DNA of 64,000 bases, taken from assembly GCA_951812955.1 (NCBI GenBank), contig OX638340.1, positions 704,001-768,000 of the forward strand, written 5' to 3'. Position numbers and translations under genes: made by a program. This DNA comes from an uncultured Gemmatimonadota bacterium. Its GTDB lineage: Bacteria; JAAXHH01. Shown piece after piece: positions 26,642 through 51,025 of the stretch. How positions within the stretch are numbered: position 1 is the stretch's first letter; every line of letters begins with the position of its first letter. The notes under the pieces are model-generated. The model had not been told where the DNA came from, searched no databases, and was given only the letters and a program-made list of their open reading frames with translations.

Positions 26642-26790
26642 GGCCGGCGGCCCGGACAGTCAGGCCCAAACGGCTGCGAATGACGATCCAGGTGGTCCGG
26701 GCTGTCAGGCCCAAACGGCTGCGAATGACGATCCAGGTGGTCCGGGCTGTCAGGCCCAAACGGCTGCGGCTGGCGATCCAGGCGGTTTTA
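26642..26790. repeat. Tandem array of about 3.3 copies of a 45-bp unit (GTCAGGCCCAAACGGCTGCGAATGACGATCCAGGTGGTCCGGGCT)
   Basis: Two perfect copies plus one diverged copy and a partial copy, read from the sequence. They lie between the 3' end of the HtrA-like gene (26814) and the 5' end of the AKR gene (26489), both on the minus strand. Confidence 0.85.
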
Positions 26791-26813: not shown

Positions 26814-28118
26814 TTAGAATCCATTATCCCCGGGCAGGACCGCCGACCGCTGACCGATACGCCGCATGCGTTCATCCAGCAGCCTTTTGAGCTGATTCAA
26901 CTTGAGCCGGTGGGCCGCAAGTTCCATTTCGTGTTCCAGGATCATTTGCTGGATTAGATTGGGATCTTCACTGGGCAGGGGATCGTCCGCATCATCTTCG
27001 ACGAGTAAAGGCGAGGCGGGGGCATTCAGCAGTTTCGGCTGAGGCGCGAGAACCGTGTTCACCGTCTTTTCCGTATCTCCCCGCAGGTACGTGATTTCGA
27101 TCCGGGTGCCCACCGGTAGCGCGGTCACGAATTCTGCAAGGACAATGGGATGGTTCATCGGGACACCGTTTACAGCCTGCAGAATATCGCCCTTGCGCAG
27201 ACCGATCTTCATGGCCGGGCTATCGGGATATACATCAGAAACGACCATACCTTCTCCGGCGCCCAGCATGATATTGCGGTCGCCGCCGACATTGATGCTG
27301 TCCCAGATTTTCTCCACGTACACACCCAGCCAGCTCCGGCGGATCTCACCGTATTCGATGAGCTGTCTGGCGAAGGTCTTTACGCGGTTGATGGGAATGA
27401 CCGAAATCAATCCTCCGTCATTTCCTCCACTAAAGTGCTCCGACAGGGAGGTCTGTGCCCCCTGGGAATCGGCCACGAGACCGAGCAGGCGACCGTTCGT
27501 TGAAAACACGGCGCCGCCGGTGTAACCTCCGCCGACCACTGCGCTGACCTGCAACATGACATCTTCTTCCCTTACCCCGTTCACGATTCCCGTCGTCATC
27601 GAGGATGGAAATCCATGGGCGTTATTCAGCACAAGAACCCAGGATCCGGGACGGACGCCATCGGAATCACCGATGCGCGCGGTATGGACCGACACGCTGT
27701 CAACACGGATCACGGCGATATCGGAAAGCCTGTCCACCCCGACGAGTTCGCCGAGGCGGTACTGGCCATCCTGGAAATTCACCAGGATATCGTGGGCATG
27801 ATCCACGACGCCGGCCGTCGTGATGATGAAACCGTCTCTGTGGAGGACAACACCGGTCCCAATGGATCGTTCCCAGTCGGTGAAAGTCTGCCCGTTCACC
27901 GTATTGATGAATTTCCGCTGTACGATCACGCTGGCGATCGTCGGTTCCACGCGTTCAACGAGTCCGACGATCTCTTGTTCCAGGTTATGCAGGTACGGGG
28001 GGGCCTGCGCGTAAGCCCTGGAAGCGGCATAAAGGTGCCCCATACAGCACAGCAGCGCGGCACATATCAGGGGCCGAAAGTGTTCGGTTCCGAGTCGTAT
28101 GGGTTGAGAACCAAGCAT
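26814..28118 (-). CDS. HtrA/DegP-like S1C protease homolog with one PDZ domain; predicted nucleophile position is Thr (GYTGG) rather than Ser
   Basis: Signal peptide (AYA/QA), His (AGVVDHA), Asp (SDIAVIRVD), GGGYTGGAVF aligning to GNSGGPL, a PDZ domain (SWLGVYV...GDILQAVNG), and a C-terminal coiled-coil tail. It is the last gene of the ECF sigma / anti-sigma operon. Confidence 0.8.
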   Translation of the reverse strand: MLGSQPIRLGTEHFRPLICAALLCCMGHLYAASRAYAQAPPYLHNLEQEIVGLVERVEPTIASVIVQRKFINTVNGQTFTDWERSIGTGVVLHRDGFIITTAGVVDHAHDILVNFQDGQYRLGELVGVDRLSDIAVIRVDSVSVHTARIGDSDGVRPGSWVLVLNNAHGFPSSMTTGIVNGVREEDVMLQVSAVVGGGYTGGAVFSTNGRLLGLVADSQGAQTSLSEHFSGGNDGGLISVIPINRVKTFARQLIEYGEIRRSWLGVYVEKIWDSINVGGDRNIMLGAGEGMVVSDVYPDSPAMKIGLRKGDILQAVNGVPMNHPIVLAEFVTALPVGTRIEITYLRGDTEKTVNTVLAPQPKLLNAPASPLLVEDDADDPLPSEDPNLIQQMILEHEMELAAHRLKLNQLKRLLDERMRRIGQRSAVLPGDNGF

Positions 28119-28124
28119 GGTTGG

Positions 28125-28994
28125 TCAGAACGAGATACGGACGCGTCTGAGAGGGGTGGTCGGACCTGACGACCCTTGCGTGTCAGGCGAACCAGGCAAA
28201 CCATATGCTCGCTGTGTTGCGCGAAATTCGGTGGTTCCGACGGGTTGCAGACGTTCCTCCGTCGTCGGTTGATCTATATTGCCGCTGGTATCCAGGCCCC
28301 GGCCGAAGGACTCGCTGAACAGGGATGGATCGAGGCGCATGCCCGTACCTGCCGACACGAATCGGATCCCATGGGTTTTTGGTTCCATGGTCCTGACGGT
28401 CATGATGCCCGGTCTGTTGCCGGTGATTCCGGATGCGTTCAAAGAGAGACTGGATGCAGAAGAAGTGGGGAGAATGGATGCCTGTTCCTGGCTCAGTGCC
28501 GGCTTTACCGCCATGTACGGCGCGAGTTCTCTTTCTAGGGGAAAGGGCGAAATCGGATCGGGGGGTGCAAGTTCGGGTTCAACGGGCGTCGGCAGGGAAA
28601 AGGCCATGGGAGGGGACGGAGACGATTCGGACCGCCCCGTAGGCGCGGACAGTTCCCAGAATCCGCCGATCACGGTTATGGTAAGGATCAGGCTGGTCGC
28701 AAATACCAGTTGAACGGGACGCTGCCGGCTGTGTTCGCCCAGTTCGGCAAAAGCCCCCGATACGCGCCTCCACCAGGAAGCGGCGTACAGTTCACGGGCA
28801 ATTTCCAGGTTCAGCAGATTACCGAGTCGATGATCGAATCCTGGTTGAGGGGATACGGCGGGCAGACTCTTCACGGCCTGTATGGAGCTTTCCATGTCAT
28901 CAATCTTGAGCCGGCACCGTGGACATCCGTTCAGGTGAAACCGTAGTTCGTCTTCGGTTGCCTTCGACAACTGACCGTCCAGGTAGTCGGACAT
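28125..28994 (-). CDS. Anti-sigma factor, zf-HC2 (putative zinc-finger) type, single-pass membrane protein
   Basis: MSDYLDGQLS...HLNGCPRCR motif, one TM (LVFATSLILTITVIGGFW), and a Pro-rich periplasmic tail. It lies immediately downstream of the ECF sigma gene. The ORF is open to 29057, so the start is ambiguous. Confidence 0.65.
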   Translation of the reverse strand: MSDYLDGQLSKATEDELRFHLNGCPRCRLKIDDMESSIQAVKSLPAVSPQPGFDHRLGNLLNLEIARELYAASWWRRVSGAFAELGEHSRQRPVQLVFATSLILTITVIGGFWELSAPTGRSESSPSPPMAFSLPTPVEPELAPPDPISPFPLERELAPYMAVKPALSQEQASILPTSSASSLSLNASGITGNRPGIMTVRTMEPKTHGIRFVSAGTGMRLDPSLFSESFGRGLDTSGNIDQPTTEERLQPVGTTEFRATQRAYGLPGSPDTQGSSGPTTPLRRVRISF

Positions 28995-29035
28995 CTTCCG
29001 CTCGTAACCACTACAGTTCAAAATATCCTTCCTCC

Positions 29036-29683
29036 TCAAAGTATCTCTACCTGCCACTGCCTGAGCATTTCCTGCAGTCTCAGCCGGCCCCGGTTGACCC
29101 GCGACTTGACGGTTCCGGTCGGACAGTGCAGTATCTCGCCGATCTGTTCGTAAGACAGTTCTTCAATATCGCGCAGCACGATCACGGATTTGTATTTCTC
29201 CGGCAGTTGATCGATCGCGTGCTGGATGGCCCTGCCCAGTTCATTCTGCTCCAGGTGATCGCCAGGCCCCGCGTTCTTGTCCGGCAGATCGATTCCTTCC
29301 CTGGTGCTGTTCTCGTGGGGCGACGCGTTCAGGGAGAAGAACTGGCGGCGTTTTCGCTTGCGCAACTCGCTCCGGGCGAGATTGAGCGCGATGGTATAAA
29401 TCCAGGTGGAAAGATTGGAGATCGCCTTGTAGTTGTGGCGGTTCCGGTAGACCCTGAGAAACGTCTCCTGCACCAGGTCTTCCGCGCACTCCATATTGTG
29501 GACCATGCGATAAATGCAATTATACAACCTGGTACGGTATCTTCCGACGATAACTTCGAAAGCGCGCGCATCCTCCCGTTGAACCCGGATGAAAAGCGCT
29601 TCATCCGACAGGGTCAATTCGTCGAGCACCCCTGATTCGATATCGGAGACCTGTACCGCGTTTATATAGGTGTTGTCAGCCAT
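29036..29683 (-). CDS. RNA polymerase sigma-70 factor, ECF subfamily
   Basis: Region 2 (FEVIVGRYRTRLYNCIYRMVHNMECAEDLVQETFLRVY) and region 4 (VIVLRDIEELSYEQIGEILHCPTGTVKSRV). ATG 29683 preceded by GGGAGAGAAG; the alternative ATG is 29698. Confidence 0.85.
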   Translation of the reverse strand: MADNTYINAVQVSDIESGVLDELTLSDEALFIRVQREDARAFEVIVGRYRTRLYNCIYRMVHNMECAEDLVQETFLRVYRNRHNYKAISNLSTWIYTIALNLARSELRKRKRRQFFSLNASPHENSTREGIDLPDKNAGPGDHLEQNELGRAIQHAIDQLPEKYKSVIVLRDIEELSYEQIGEILHCPTGTVKSRVNRGRLRLQEMLRQWQVEIL

Positions 29684-29699
29684 TTTCTTCTCTCCCATA

Positions 29700-29735
29700 C
29701 CACGTTATACGTTGCGCGGAGGGATGGGTTTCAGA
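29700..29735 (-). promoter_or_regulatory. Candidate ECF-type autoregulated promoter (TGAAAC-N16-CGTATAA) upstream of the sigma gene
   Basis: Minus-strand sequence ctGAAACccatccctccgcgcaaCGTATaacgtg sits immediately 5' of the ECF sigma start. It resembles the GGAAC-N16/17-CGT(C/A) class; inference only. Confidence 0.25.
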
Positions 29736-29838
29736 AAAAGTGGCCGGTATCCATCACAACCGGATTGATTCCGGCTTGCCGGCCCGCAATGGTCAATTAG
29801 GAATATAGAATACTGCCGGCCGGATGTCAATCGGACCG

Positions 29839-31518
29839 TCATGCCCGCACCTCGCTCACATCGTGTATGGTATACTGATAGCCCTGCTCAGTGAGGAAGA
29901 GCTGACGGTTCACGGCGTAGTCCTGGTCCAGGGTGTTTCGCGTGATGAGCGAGTAGAATATGGCGGCCGAGCCGTCAGCCTTGGGACGGAGGATCCGGCC
30001 CAGACGCTGGGCTTCCTCCTGGCGAGACCCGAAAGTGCCCGATATCTGGATCGCCACGTTGGCGTCCGGCAGGTCGATGGCGAAATTGGCGACTTTGGAC
30101 ACCACGAGGCGTTTGAGTTCACCGTTTCTGAACCGGTTATACAGATCGAGTCGGGCCTGCAGGGGCGTGCTGCCGGTGATCAGGGGGAAATCGAACAACG
30201 CGGCGATCTGCTTGAGCTGTCTCACGTATAGACCGATTATCAGAACCTGGTCCGTCGGATGTTGATCCAGCAGGTTGCGGATGATCTCCGTCTTCCGGCT
30301 GTTTTCCGAGGCGATCCTGAACTTCTCCCTGCGATTGGCCACGGCGTAGGACATGCGCCGTGCTTCGGGCAGGTCTATCCGGATTTCACGGCAGTACGCC
30401 TCCGCGATCCAACCCTGCCGCTCCAGCAGTTTCCAAGGCATGTCGTACCTTCGGGGACCAATGAGGCTGAAGACGTCGTCCTCGCGGCCGTCTTCCCGAA
30501 CCAGCGTAGCGGTCAGCCCGAGGCGCCTTCGGGCCTGGATCTCGGCCGTGAAACGAAAAACCGGGGCCGGCAGCAAGTGAACCTCGTCATAGATGATGAG
30601 GCCCCAGCCCTTCTGGTCGAATAGACCGAAATGCTTGAATTCGTCTCCCCTGCTTTTCCTGTAAGTCAGAATCTGGTATGTGGCCAGTGTTACGGGCCGA
30701 ATCTGTTTCGTTTCACCGGAATACTCACCGATCATATCCTCGGAAAGCGAAGTCTTCCCGATCAGTTCCTCCCGCCACTGCCGCAGTGCCACCGTGTTGG
30801 CCGTAAGTACGAGGGTGTGACATTTCAGGGCGGCCATGGCACCGAGGGCCACGATCGTTTTCCCCGCGCCGCAGGGGAGCACGACGACTCCGTTGCCGCC
30901 CTGCGGTTCGCCGTTCATGTGGAACGCGCCAACGGCGTCCACCTGGTAATCCCTCATGCTGAAGGATTTACGGTCGCCGGGCGTGGTGCGCAAATCGATT
31001 GCCAACGGGGCGCCTTCTACGTAACCCGCCAGATCTTCCACCGGAAATCCGACTTTTATCAGCGCCTGCTTGATGTGGCCGCGGAATCGATCACCCACCC
31101 GGACCCGTCGCTCGTCCAGCGGTTGTGCGAGAAACTGCTTGACCGAGGGCAGCCCGGAAACTTCCGCGATAAGCGCCGCATCGTCGGACTCGAGTATAAG
31201 CTTCCCGTCCTCCTTGCGCAGCCTGAGCTGGCCGTACCGGGCTATGAAATCGACGATCTCGCGGCGGATGTTCTGTGGAATCTCGTACTTGCTCAGGCCT
31301 TCGAGCGACTCGAGCACGCCGTCCGCTTCCATGCCCGCCGAGGCGGCGTTCCACAGTGACAGGGGGCTCAGCCTGTATACGTGGATATGCTCAGGGGACT
31401 TTTCCAGTTCCGCGAATCGCGCCAGCGCATCCCGAGCGTCCTCGTAGCGTGGATGGTCGACTTCGACGAGGATGGTCCGGTCGCTCTGCACGATCAATGG
31501 GTTCTTCAGGTCAGGCAA
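29839..31518 (-). CDS. XPB/Rad25(Ssl2)-like superfamily-2 DNA helicase
   Basis: N-terminal NPLIVQSDRTILVEV damage-recognition-like domain, Walker A (VVLPCGAGKT), DEVH (IIYDEVHLLPA), and C-terminal helicase motifs. TTG start preceded by AAGGGGAG. Confidence 0.8.
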   Translation of the reverse strand: MPDLKNPLIVQSDRTILVEVDHPRYEDARDALARFAELEKSPEHIHVYRLSPLSLWNAASAGMEADGVLESLEGLSKYEIPQNIRREIVDFIARYGQLRLRKEDGKLILESDDAALIAEVSGLPSVKQFLAQPLDERRVRVGDRFRGHIKQALIKVGFPVEDLAGYVEGAPLAIDLRTTPGDRKSFSMRDYQVDAVGAFHMNGEPQGGNGVVVLPCGAGKTIVALGAMAALKCHTLVLTANTVALRQWREELIGKTSLSEDMIGEYSGETKQIRPVTLATYQILTYRKSRGDEFKHFGLFDQKGWGLIIYDEVHLLPAPVFRFTAEIQARRRLGLTATLVREDGREDDVFSLIGPRRYDMPWKLLERQGWIAEAYCREIRIDLPEARRMSYAVANRREKFRIASENSRKTEIIRNLLDQHPTDQVLIIGLYVRQLKQIAALFDFPLITGSTPLQARLDLYNRFRNGELKRLVVSKVANFAIDLPDANVAIQISGTFGSRQEEAQRLGRILRPKADGSAAIFYSLITRNTLDQDYAVNRQLFLTEQGYQYTIHDVSEVRA

Positions 31519-49530: not shown

Positions 49531-50141
49531 ACGAGGAACAGGCGGGGCGGGCTCATCGCGACCAGCTCCAACGGGCACTGGGTCATTACCTGGCGCGTTT
49601 TCCCGGTGAAGGCGAAACGGTAGAACGGATCCGTTCCCTGGTGGCCGGACATCCCGACTGCTTCGAAAGGACGTGCCTGCCGGGCCACATCACCGGTTCG
49701 GCCTGGATCGTTTCTCCCGACTGTTCTAAATACCTGATGACCCGCCACCGGATATTCGACCGCTGGCTACAGTTGGGCGGCCATTCCGACGGTTGCACCC
49801 AACCTCACCTCGTCGCCCTGCGGGAAGCCGAAGAAGAGTCCGGGCTATCGGGTTTCGGCCTGTACCGTGAGCTGGAAGGATTCGTTCCACTGGACGTGGA
49901 TATCCACACCATCGCCGCCCGGGCCGGCGTACCTGCGCATGCGCATTTCGACCTCCGCTATCTGCTGATGGCATCCGTCGAAAAACCCTTGAAGATAAGC
50001 GATGAATCCCATGACCTCAGGTGGTTTGAAAGGAACGAACTCATGGAAATGATCCACGAAGAAAGCGTGCTTCGCATGCTGCACAAAGGGGACGCCGCCC
50101 TGAAACGGCAGAGGGGGGATTTCGTACACAGTTTCTCCTGA
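49518..50141 (+). CDS. NUDIX hydrolase
   Basis: Nudix box GGHSDGCTQPHLVALREAEEESGL. ATG 49518 overlaps the Ldh_2 gene end; the alternative GTG is 49497. Confidence 0.7.
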   Translation: MREVNEEQAGRAHRDQLQRALGHYLARFPGEGETVERIRSLVAGHPDCFERTCLPGHITGSAWIVSPDCSKYLMTRHRIFDRWLQLGGHSDGCTQPHLVALREAEEESGLSGFGLYRELEGFVPLDVDIHTIAARAGVPAHAHFDLRYLLMASVEKPLKISDESHDLRWFERNELMEMIHEESVLRMLHKGDAALKRQRGDFVHSFS

Positions 50142-50269: not shown

Positions 50270-51025
50270 ATGCCCCCTCCCGCAGCCCTTCAGCTTTATA
50301 CCCTTCGAGAAATGGCCGACAAGGACTTCGATCAGGTGGTGAACCTGACCGCGGAGATCGGTTATGCTGGCGTCGAGCCCGCCGGTTTTCCCGGCACCAC
50401 GCCGGAAGCGGCCGGCAGGCTCTTCGAATCGCTGAACCTCGAAGTTCCCAGCGCGCACCTTCCGCTGCCCGTCGGCGACAACAAATCCTATGTCATCGAA
50501 ACAGCCGGTGCGCTCGGGACCAGCCGCGTGGTCGCGGGGCTGGGCCGGGACGATCACAACACGGTAGACAACATCAGGTGGTCGGCGGACCGCTTCAACG
50601 CGGCCGCGGAAGCCGTAGCGCCTCACGGTTTGACCTTCGGGATACATAATCACTGGTGGGAATACCTCGAGGTTGAGGGACGGATAGCGACGGATATCCT
50701 CCTCGAGCATCTTTCACCAGAGGTATTCTTCCAGGTGGACGTGTACTGGGTTCAGGTCGGCGGTCCCGATCCGGCCGGCGTGCTCGAGCGCCTCGGCGCC
50801 CGAGCGCCGCTGCTTCACCTCAAGGACGGCCCCTGCCTACGGGATACGGACATGACCGCCCTGGGCGAAGGGAAGGTGGACCTCCCTGGCGTGATCGCAG
50901 CCGGCGGAGATCACACCGAGTGGCACATCGTCGAACTGGACAGTTGCGCGACGGACATGGTCGAAGCGGTGAAGAAGAGTTACGACTACCTGGTGGACAA
51001 CGGCCTGTCCCGCGGCAACAGGTAG
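50270..51025 (+). CDS. Sugar phosphate isomerase/epimerase (xylose isomerase-like TIM barrel)
   Basis: LQLYTLREM N-terminus, AGVEP, and an HNHWWEY-type metal-ligand region. Confidence 0.8.
   Translation: MPPPAALQLYTLREMADKDFDQVVNLTAEIGYAGVEPAGFPGTTPEAAGRLFESLNLEVPSAHLPLPVGDNKSYVIETAGALGTSRVVAGLGRDDHNTVDNIRWSADRFNAAAEAVAPHGLTFGIHNHWWEYLEVEGRIATDILLEHLSPEVFFQVDVYWVQVGGPDPAGVLERLGARAPLLHLKDGPCLRDTDMTALGEGKVDLPGVIAAGGDHTEWHIVELDSCATDMVEAVKKSYDYLVDNGLSRGNR

Follow-up and report, generated by a model that had tools for sequence, protein, structure and literature searches.

We analysed a 64,000-nucleotide stretch of contig OX638340.1 from an uncultured Gemmatimonadota bacterium (the window, to whose numbering all positions refer), focusing on a gene for an HtrA-like protein of 434 amino acids (26814..28118) that has threonine where a serine protease carries its nucleophile. 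The gene stands last in an operon that reads, on the minus strand, extracytoplasmic function (ECF) sigma factor, zf-HC2 anti-sigma factor, HtrA-like protein. Judged by the observations presented here the threonine is genuine, yet a symptom, and the gene belongs to a widespread, misannotated clade of apparently dead HtrA proteins whose partners in a conserved module are an ECF sigma factor and an anti-sigma factor with a tail resembling the C-terminus of an outer-membrane protein (OMP).

The ECF sigma operon and its HtrA-like gene

All features of the operon lie on the minus strand. The sigma factor gene (29036..29698) is recognised by Pfam Sigma70_r2/r4_2, and its best NCBIfam match, below the cut-off, is SigW/RpoE-like; its second ATG, at 29683 (215 amino acids), follows a conserved GGGAG, the first ATG is missing in two related loci (L019 and L021), and the true start is probably the second. 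The sigma factor is followed in the same operon by its own anti-sigma factor (28125..29021; 298 amino acids), with 14 nucleotides from the stop of the one to the start of the other. The mechanically called open reading frame (ORF) of the anti-sigma factor is longer (28125-29057), and the start is most likely the TTG at 29021, which sits behind the Shine-Dalgarno sequence GGAGG and at which homologues begin with MNCSGY. The protein has a ZAS (zinc-associated anti-sigma) domain (zf-HC2, PF13490) with H-x3-C-x2-C, and one transmembrane helix at about residues 101-118. Six nucleotides, with no ORF between, separate its stop codon from the ATG of the HtrA-like gene, which is the third gene of the operon and, by this arrangement, translationally coupled.

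Ahead of the sigma gene lies an exact match to an ECF-type (SigW/RpoE-like) promoter motif, TGAAAC-N16-CGTA(TAA), with a T-run before it (29708..29733), and upstream of that a sigma-70-type promoter-like site, TTGACA-N17-TATATT, with 11 of 12 matches (29802..29830). Both elements are kept in nine aligned loci, down to those with 53-56% HtrA identity, the ECF-type motif as invariant blocks, and the presence of this conserved motif before the sigma gene indicates that the operon is probably autoregulated. A second exact TGAAAC-N16-CGTA occurs on the plus strand at 50101-50126, at the end of a NUDIX ORF and about 140 nucleotides before a xylose-isomerase-like TIM-barrel gene (50270-51025). The site lacks a T-run, the motif with at most one mismatch was found 4 times against 2.45 expected, and this occurrence is probably due to chance.

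All 24 close loci for which flanking sequence was available share the order XPB-like helicase, ECF sigma factor, anti-sigma factor, HtrA-like protein, and in them identity to the window proteins runs at 63-98% for the sigma factor, 39-95% for the HtrA-like protein and 33-93% for the anti-sigma factor. The XPB/ERCC3/RAD25-type helicase (Helicase_C_3, ResIII, ERCC3_RAD25_C; 29839-31518, minus strand), immediately upstream of the sigma operon, keeps its place in these 24 loci at 73-99% identity and lies outside the module in distant clades. At the other end, three tandem copies of a 45-nucleotide unit (93% matches; 26652-26786) stand between the stop of the HtrA-like gene (26814) and the start of an aldo/keto reductase gene (26537); none of the 53 loci retrieved contains the unit, L002 and L003 at 94-95% identity among them, and it occurs nowhere else in the window.

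The HtrA-like protein combines, according to Pfam, a Trypsin_2 domain (residues 87-214, E 2.6e-20) with a single PDZ domain (residues 273-355, PDZ_6/PDZ_2), that is, the chymotrypsin-fold domain plus at least one PDZ domain of the HtrA/Do family (MEROPS S1C). Residues 1-37 (28008..28118) form a predicted Sec signal peptide with a basic n-region, a hydrophobic core and an A-x-A|Q site, and in the N-terminal family alignment the hydrophobic stretch is followed by a conserved [AV]-x-[AG]-Q; cleavage at this pattern would leave a soluble periplasmic protein. The degenerate protease domain (residues 61-256; 27351..27938), delimited by Pfam, phmmer, AlphaFold2 (AF2) and alignments, has a shortened L3 loop (GIVNGVREEDVMLQVS). 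The PDZ domain (residues 257-360; 27039..27350), placed by Pfam and family alignments, has a carboxylate-binding loop, R261-S-W-L-G-V266, that is invariant in those alignments and a groove helix, H323-V331, that is nearly so. In place of a second PDZ domain (PDZ2) stands a C-terminal helix, amphipathic or coiled-coil-like (residues 386-424; 26847..26963), which AF2 predicts with a per-residue confidence score (pLDDT) of about 76-85, and which is kept in the family and in many distant clade members and absent from canonical HtrA proteins. The initial annotation had described both the single PDZ domain and an unusual tail of this kind, and both are borne out. The AF2 model as a whole, built on 35 family sequences (mean pLDDT 72.6), shows a two-barrel protease fold, the PDZ domain and the long helix, and its Foldseek matches are the protease-plus-PDZ1 units of DegP, DegQ, AlgW, MucD and DegS (E 1e-26 to 1e-22). 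The curated NCBIfam cut-offs are missed by the TIGR02037 'Do family' (177 against 416 bits), DegS (117 against 423) and DegP (124 against 720) models, of which the DegS model aligns across residues 53-357.

Triad positions and the His-less clade

A database search returned 56 close relatives at E 1e-265 to 1e-73, with canonical Do proteases following only at 1e-33, and we define the family as these 56 and the window protein, 57 sequences in all. In a phmmer comparison against the PDB, the segment 'vvgggyTggavf' of the window protein sits on 'ainrgnSggalv' of DegP, which places Thr200 (codon ACC, 27519..27521) on the nucleophile Ser210; family alignments with HtrA homologues and orthologues put the serine site at this residue, and the nearest orthologues share the threonine. 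The initial annotation therefore had the residue and its ACC codon right, and erred in placing the codon at about 27505-27510. It had also held that the catalytic histidine is retained, which does not stand: the residue it had in mind is H107, four positions further on, and the catalytic His105 of DegP ('vtnnHvvdna') pairs in phmmer with Gly103 (codon GGC, 27810..27812) of 'ittaGvvdha', with MAFFT and hmmalign in agreement. A shifted alignment that sets H107 on the catalytic histidine was tried and rejected, as the flanks of Gly103 are free of gaps (DGFIITTAGVV against DGYVVTNNHVV). The aspartate reported by the initial annotation is indeed present in the window protein as Asp133 (codon GAT, 27720..27722, placed by family alignments), at a position that varies in the family. 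The triad positions of the window protein thus read Gly-Asp-Thr (Gly103/Asp133/Thr200) and not the His-Asp-Ser of S1C proteases.

Across the family the histidine position is occupied by glycine in 48 members, serine in four, aspartate in two, asparagine in two and alanine in one, and by histidine in none. The aspartate position holds aspartate in 42, asparagine in ten, glycine in four and serine in one, and the nucleophile position holds serine in 28, threonine in 21, alanine in six and isoleucine and proline in one each. G201 and G202 are fixed, and the residue preceding the nucleophile is tyrosine or phenylalanine, not asparagine. The aspartate and serine positions appear to drift freely, with Thr200 as one state of that drift. 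The HtrA-like ORF is nevertheless full length in more than 50 orthologues, and the ratio of nonsynonymous to synonymous substitution rates (dN/dS) is 0.16-0.23 against six orthologues (dS 0.14-0.73), which indicates that the gene is under purifying selection. The absence of the histidine from every member and the drift at the two other positions, in a gene that is yet under purifying selection, point to a pseudoprotease, and not a threonine protease, that would be kept for a function without need of the triad; the sequence argues against proteolytic activity. The initial annotation had raised the prospect of a catalytically dead HtrA acting as a chaperone or regulator, and this is where the evidence leads, with two and often three triad positions degenerate, with purifying selection, and with linkage to the sigma and anti-sigma genes across phyla.

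Two other explanations have to be set against this pseudoprotease reading. The initial annotation had offered an error of one base (ACC in place of AGC or TCC) as the trivial alternative, to which a decaying pseudogene may be added, and the chance of such an artefact is negligible. The serine codons of relatives, always TCN, are one transversion from ACN, which speaks for an error. However, ACC is also found at this position in three independent assemblies (L002, L003 and L005; 80-95% protein identity), the threonine is shared by the nearest orthologues from independent metagenome-assembled genomes (MAGs; P0001, P0002, P0004 and P0005), and more distant genomes encode it by ACC, ACA or ACG; a base error is excluded because ACC recurs in independent genomes and because the threonine codon varies in distant ones. 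Furthermore, threonine, serine, alanine, isoleucine and proline alternate at this position in the family, the catalytic histidine is gone as well (GGC against CAY takes more than one base change), and a dN/dS of about 0.2 with full-length ORFs throughout does not describe a pseudogene. It is also highly improbable that the protein is an active protease with a non-canonical site, in which Thr200, as the initial annotation had considered, serves as the nucleophile and the base has been relocated, for instance to H107 or H109 in the conserved segment DHAHD. Of the 57 sequences in the family, 49 retain H107 and 35 retain H109, and Asp133 is present in the window protein. Members that keep H107 can, however, carry alanine, isoleucine or proline at the nucleophile position (P0039-41, P0046, P0006/L020 and P0030), and a relocated base is disfavoured for this reason; both histidines are absent from distant sequences of the family and from the clade at large, the general-base histidine is missing from its proper position in every family member, the aspartate position is asparagine, glycine or serine in 15 of 57, and we know of no chymotrypsin-fold enzyme with its base shifted by four residues.

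The H107/H109 pair is of some interest in its own right, as this His-x-His motif (residues 105-109, V-D-H-A-H; 27792-27806) lies just past the lost catalytic histidine, is conserved in the Latescibacterota subfamily, and may serve to bind a metal or a ligand, in a way comparable to the di-His motif of MamO.

The loss of the histidine extends well beyond the family. A profile search was made over 1.84 billion cluster representatives (50% identity), and among the 145 alignable of the top 150 representatives the catalytic histidine is present in 86 and absent from 59, 45 of which fall, together with the window protein, into one clade of a neighbour-joining tree. All 115 new top hits of a second search, with a profile of distant His-less members, lack both histidine and aspartate (mostly S/N/S), and many of them are named Zixibacteria and 'serine protease Do' in their sources. 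Members of this ECF-linked His-less HtrA-like clade, which is defined in the present analysis and is not a curated family, have a short L3 loop (G[IL]VNGxRxED..Q.S as against GIVSA, 10-14 amino acids and IQTD), a single PDZ domain with an intact carboxylate-binding loop ([WYF]LG[VI]), and often a charged C-terminal helix replacing PDZ2. The window protein has all of these traits: it is His-less, with a short L3 loop, one PDZ domain with intact loop and a C-terminal helix. The close family is found in MAGs labelled Latescibacterota or 'Gemmatimonadetes', for several of which the isolate names suggest sponge or coral hosts, and the distant members in Zixibacteria and Gemmatimonadota. Four further proteins of 1045-1293 amino acids (P0125, P0138, P0213 and P0234) contain 6-11 separate matches each to the pseudo-HtrA profile and look like strings of several trypsin-like or PDZ domains; the triad positions of P0125 read R/D/Y.

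The tie to the sigma operon is likewise retained at a distance. In nine of nine informative distant loci (P0124, P0127, P0135, P0136, P0157, P0164, P0166, L027 and L028) a zf-HC2 or homologous anti-sigma gene lies directly upstream of the His-less gene, and in eight of them an ECF sigma gene is visible. The wider neighbourhoods differ among these loci, and the conserved unit is therefore the three-gene module. The contigs of P0146, which has the canonical triad, and of P0129 break off too close to the gene to show its neighbours. The public names of His-less members (P0030, P0037, P0045 and P0328-P0428) are 'serine protease Do', 'S1-C subfamily serine protease' and 'trypsin-like peptidase domain-containing protein', which amounts to a systematic over-annotation of catalytic function.

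The anti-sigma tail and a proposed mechanism

The AF2 model of the anti-sigma factor contains helices for the ZAS domain and the transmembrane segment, and no structure for residues 120-298 (pLDDT below 50). This periplasmic region is rich in proline and serine and evolves fast, with three conserved islands. The most telling of these is the C-terminal tail, PLRRVRISF-COOH (28128..28154), identified in the homologue alignment, which has the OMP-like pattern Phi-x-Phi-x-F and which we propose as a PDZ ligand. R[VIT]R[IV]SF ends 45 of 46 anti-sigma homologues, and the last ten residues are 74% conserved as against 42% for the 50 before them. The two other islands are LPTPxEPELAPPDPISPFP (residues 144-175, about 28497-28592) and GIxTVRTMEPxTHGIRFVSAGTGMRLDPSLF (residues 205-235, about 28317-28409), and in distant subclades Y-x-x-P recurs 10-15 residues ahead of the C-terminus; these are possible additional contact sites. 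The anti-sigma factors of distant subclades cannot be aligned with one another and end in RVAF, RVSF, YVRF, KVVF, PDDF, GTDF, KTDY, LVSY or ISTY, and phenylalanine or tyrosine is the last residue in 10 of 12 distant subclades; among long ORFs of the same DNA such ends make up at most 9%, these anti-sigma ORFs counted in. The C-termini of OMPs have the pattern Phi-x-Phi-x-F-COOH, and the PDZ domains of HtrA proteins bind such aromatic C-termini, as known from DegS, AlgW and MucE.

We propose a model for this operon in which the PDZ domain of the dead HtrA grips the anti-sigma tail and the protein serves as a stoichiometric partner, a guard-type co-regulator of sigma release, and we hold it with about even confidence. 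The gene product would be a secreted descendant of an HtrA/DegS-type protease that has given up catalysis and retains the fold, a functional-looking PDZ domain and the C-terminal helix. In the periplasm the PDZ domain would hold the anti-sigma factor by its free, OMP-like end (...RVRISF-COOH), and the other conserved islands of the disordered region may rest on the dead protease body. As a stoichiometric partner of the anti-sigma factor, the pseudo-HtrA would be a functional analogue of RseB on a DegS-like scaffold, shielding the tail from site-1 or tail-specific proteolysis. When unassembled OMPs are present, their C-termini would compete for the PDZ domain and displace the pseudo-HtrA, leading to degradation of the anti-sigma factor and freeing of the sigma factor. 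The contact between PDZ domain and tail, and the direction of regulation, in which we take the pseudo-HtrA to be a guard rather than an adaptor, are both ones that we infer. More tentatively, and as less likely than not, we suggest that this would be a new kind of envelope-stress switch, in which the anti-sigma factor has a built-in mimic of an OMP C-terminus, held by a dead PDZ protein of DegS descent, and unassembled OMPs displace that pseudoprotease by competition and do not activate a protease allosterically, with the module spread across Latescibacterota, Zixibacteria, Gemmatimonadota and relatives.

Two other roles for a dead HtrA in this operon deserve consideration. The protein may be a chaperone only, a holdase for misfolded envelope proteins comparable to DegP S210A, that is expressed from the sigma factor's operon and makes no contact with the anti-sigma factor. 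Protease-dead DegP retains chaperone activity, the PDZ groove and the fold are preserved here, and an operon that is probably autoregulated would raise the level of the protein under stress. The strict linkage of the three genes across phyla and the coupling to a low-abundance membrane regulator nevertheless fit a complex better; a pure chaperone would also leave unexplained why an OMP-like tail is conserved on a disordered, fast-evolving region of the anti-sigma factor, and the cage-forming PDZ2 is absent and the L3 loop shortened, so that we consider this role rather unlikely. An adaptor role is unlikely as well: the pseudo-HtrA would capture the tail and present it to an active HtrA, DegS or Ctp protease encoded elsewhere, or form mixed oligomers with it, and so promote site-1 cleavage. 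There is a precedent in MamO, a pseudoprotease that likewise carries threonine in place of the nucleophile and without which MamE-dependent proteolysis fails (PMC4794232), and the linkage and the tail speak for an adaptor as they do for a guard. However, none of the loci examined has an active HtrA paralogue linked to the module, and the 64-kb window encodes none. An activator that is produced together with the anti-sigma factor it targets, under autoregulation, would also amount to positive feedback with no obvious brake.

Several points weigh against the guard model. The anti-sigma ORFs of two of the distant loci, L027 and L028, end in the non-aromatic ...SFSP and ...TFSP. The control for aromatic ends is a general one, drawn from long ORFs of the same DNA, and not specific to ZAS anti-sigma factors. 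The neighbour-joining tree that unites the clade carries no support values, and the top-150 sample is biased toward the query profile. Another protease, such as Prc/Ctp or a true DegS, may instead recognise the aromatic end as a degron, in which case the pseudo-HtrA could be no more than a co-expressed chaperone.

Relation to known systems and meaning

A close parallel to the pseudo-HtrA is given by DegS and AlgW, which like it consist of a chymotrypsin-type domain and one PDZ domain (Foldseek E ~1e-23 to 1e-25), act in the periplasm and are tied to an ECF sigma and anti-sigma pair, and whose PDZ domain, as is expected here, reads Phi-x-F-COOH peptides. Unlike them, the pseudo-HtrA has the triad G-D-T, G[YF][ST]GG in place of GNSGG and a shortened L3 sensor loop; it has a predicted cleavable signal peptide where DegS and AlgW have an N-terminal membrane anchor, and it has the additional C-terminal helix. 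Furthermore, its gene lies inside the sigma operon, and the Phi-x-F peptide is found on the anti-sigma factor and not on OMPs or MucE. The likeness to RseB/MucB concerns the putative role alone, that of a periplasmic product of the sigma operon which would bind the periplasmic domain of the anti-sigma factor and control access of the site-1 protease; there is no kinship in sequence or fold, and no MucB_RseB domain is present in the operon.

With regard to gene order, the operon resembles sigE-rseA-htrA (Rv1223) of M. tuberculosis and algU-mucA-mucB-mucC-mucD of P. aeruginosa, in which an ECF sigma gene, an anti-sigma gene and an HtrA-family gene likewise follow one another. The anti-sigma factor of M. 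tuberculosis is also of the ZAS type, and the HtrA of its operon is active. In both of these operons the HtrA protein is catalytically active with an intact triad, unlike the present one, and MucD has two PDZ domains. The AlgU-MucA-MucD type assigned by the initial annotation accordingly holds for the gene order and does not extend to the components. The anti-sigma factor here is of the ZAS kind, with a transmembrane helix and a disordered periplasmic tail, whereas MucA and RseA are not zf-HC2 proteins; Pfam finds neither RseA_N nor RseA_C in it, and NCBIfam only weak ZAS-type anti-sigma matches. No RseB/MucB gene follows the anti-sigma gene, and the operon has no active two-PDZ protease like MucD, the HtrA-like protein having one PDZ domain and a degenerate triad.

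Loss of catalysis in an HtrA protein has precedents. MamO is an HtrA-derived pseudoprotease in which T225 takes the place of the nucleophile and the L1 loop is divergent, and whose non-catalytic role is under selection (PMC4794232). The pseudo-HtrA is similar to MamO and LimO in having threonine at the nucleophile within a degenerate L1 (GYTGG against GNSGG) that is retained by selection. MamO differs in that it keeps the histidine and the aspartate, is fused to a TauE transporter, has a di-His metal site and is encoded in a magnetosome island; Pfam finds no TauE domain in the pseudo-HtrA, which reaches 15 bits with the NCBIfam MamO model NF040961 against a cut-off of 800, and the two are of independent origin. 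In plants, DEG7 is reported to have kept a degenerate HtrA protease domain for protein-protein interaction or oligomerisation (PMC3194040). It is unlike the pseudo-HtrA in being eukaryotic, in combining a degenerate and an active domain in one polypeptide, and in having no sigma or anti-sigma context. MamO and DEG7 are the only HtrA pseudoproteases found in the open-access literature searched, in which neither an ECF-linked inactive HtrA nor an anti-sigma tail acting as a PDZ ligand was found described, and no trypsin, PDZ or HtrA neighbours are named in the main text of the paper that reclassified the ECF sigma factors. The pseudo-HtrA belongs with the HtrA pseudoproteases and, in its proposed role, with the accessory periplasmic regulators of ECF anti-sigma factors.

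HtrA and DegS proteases are classic envelope-stress sensors, in which activation of the protease is the signal. That a clade should have dropped catalysis while keeping the PDZ sensor and the tie to an ECF sigma and anti-sigma pair implies a proteolysis-independent link from periplasmic peptide sensing to transcription. The hundreds of database entries named "serine protease Do" or "S1-C subfamily serine protease" in this clade cannot be canonical serine proteases. Finally, should the contact between PDZ domain and anti-sigma tail hold true, it would provide several uncultured phyla, including the sponge-associated Latescibacterota, with a simple three-protein switch.

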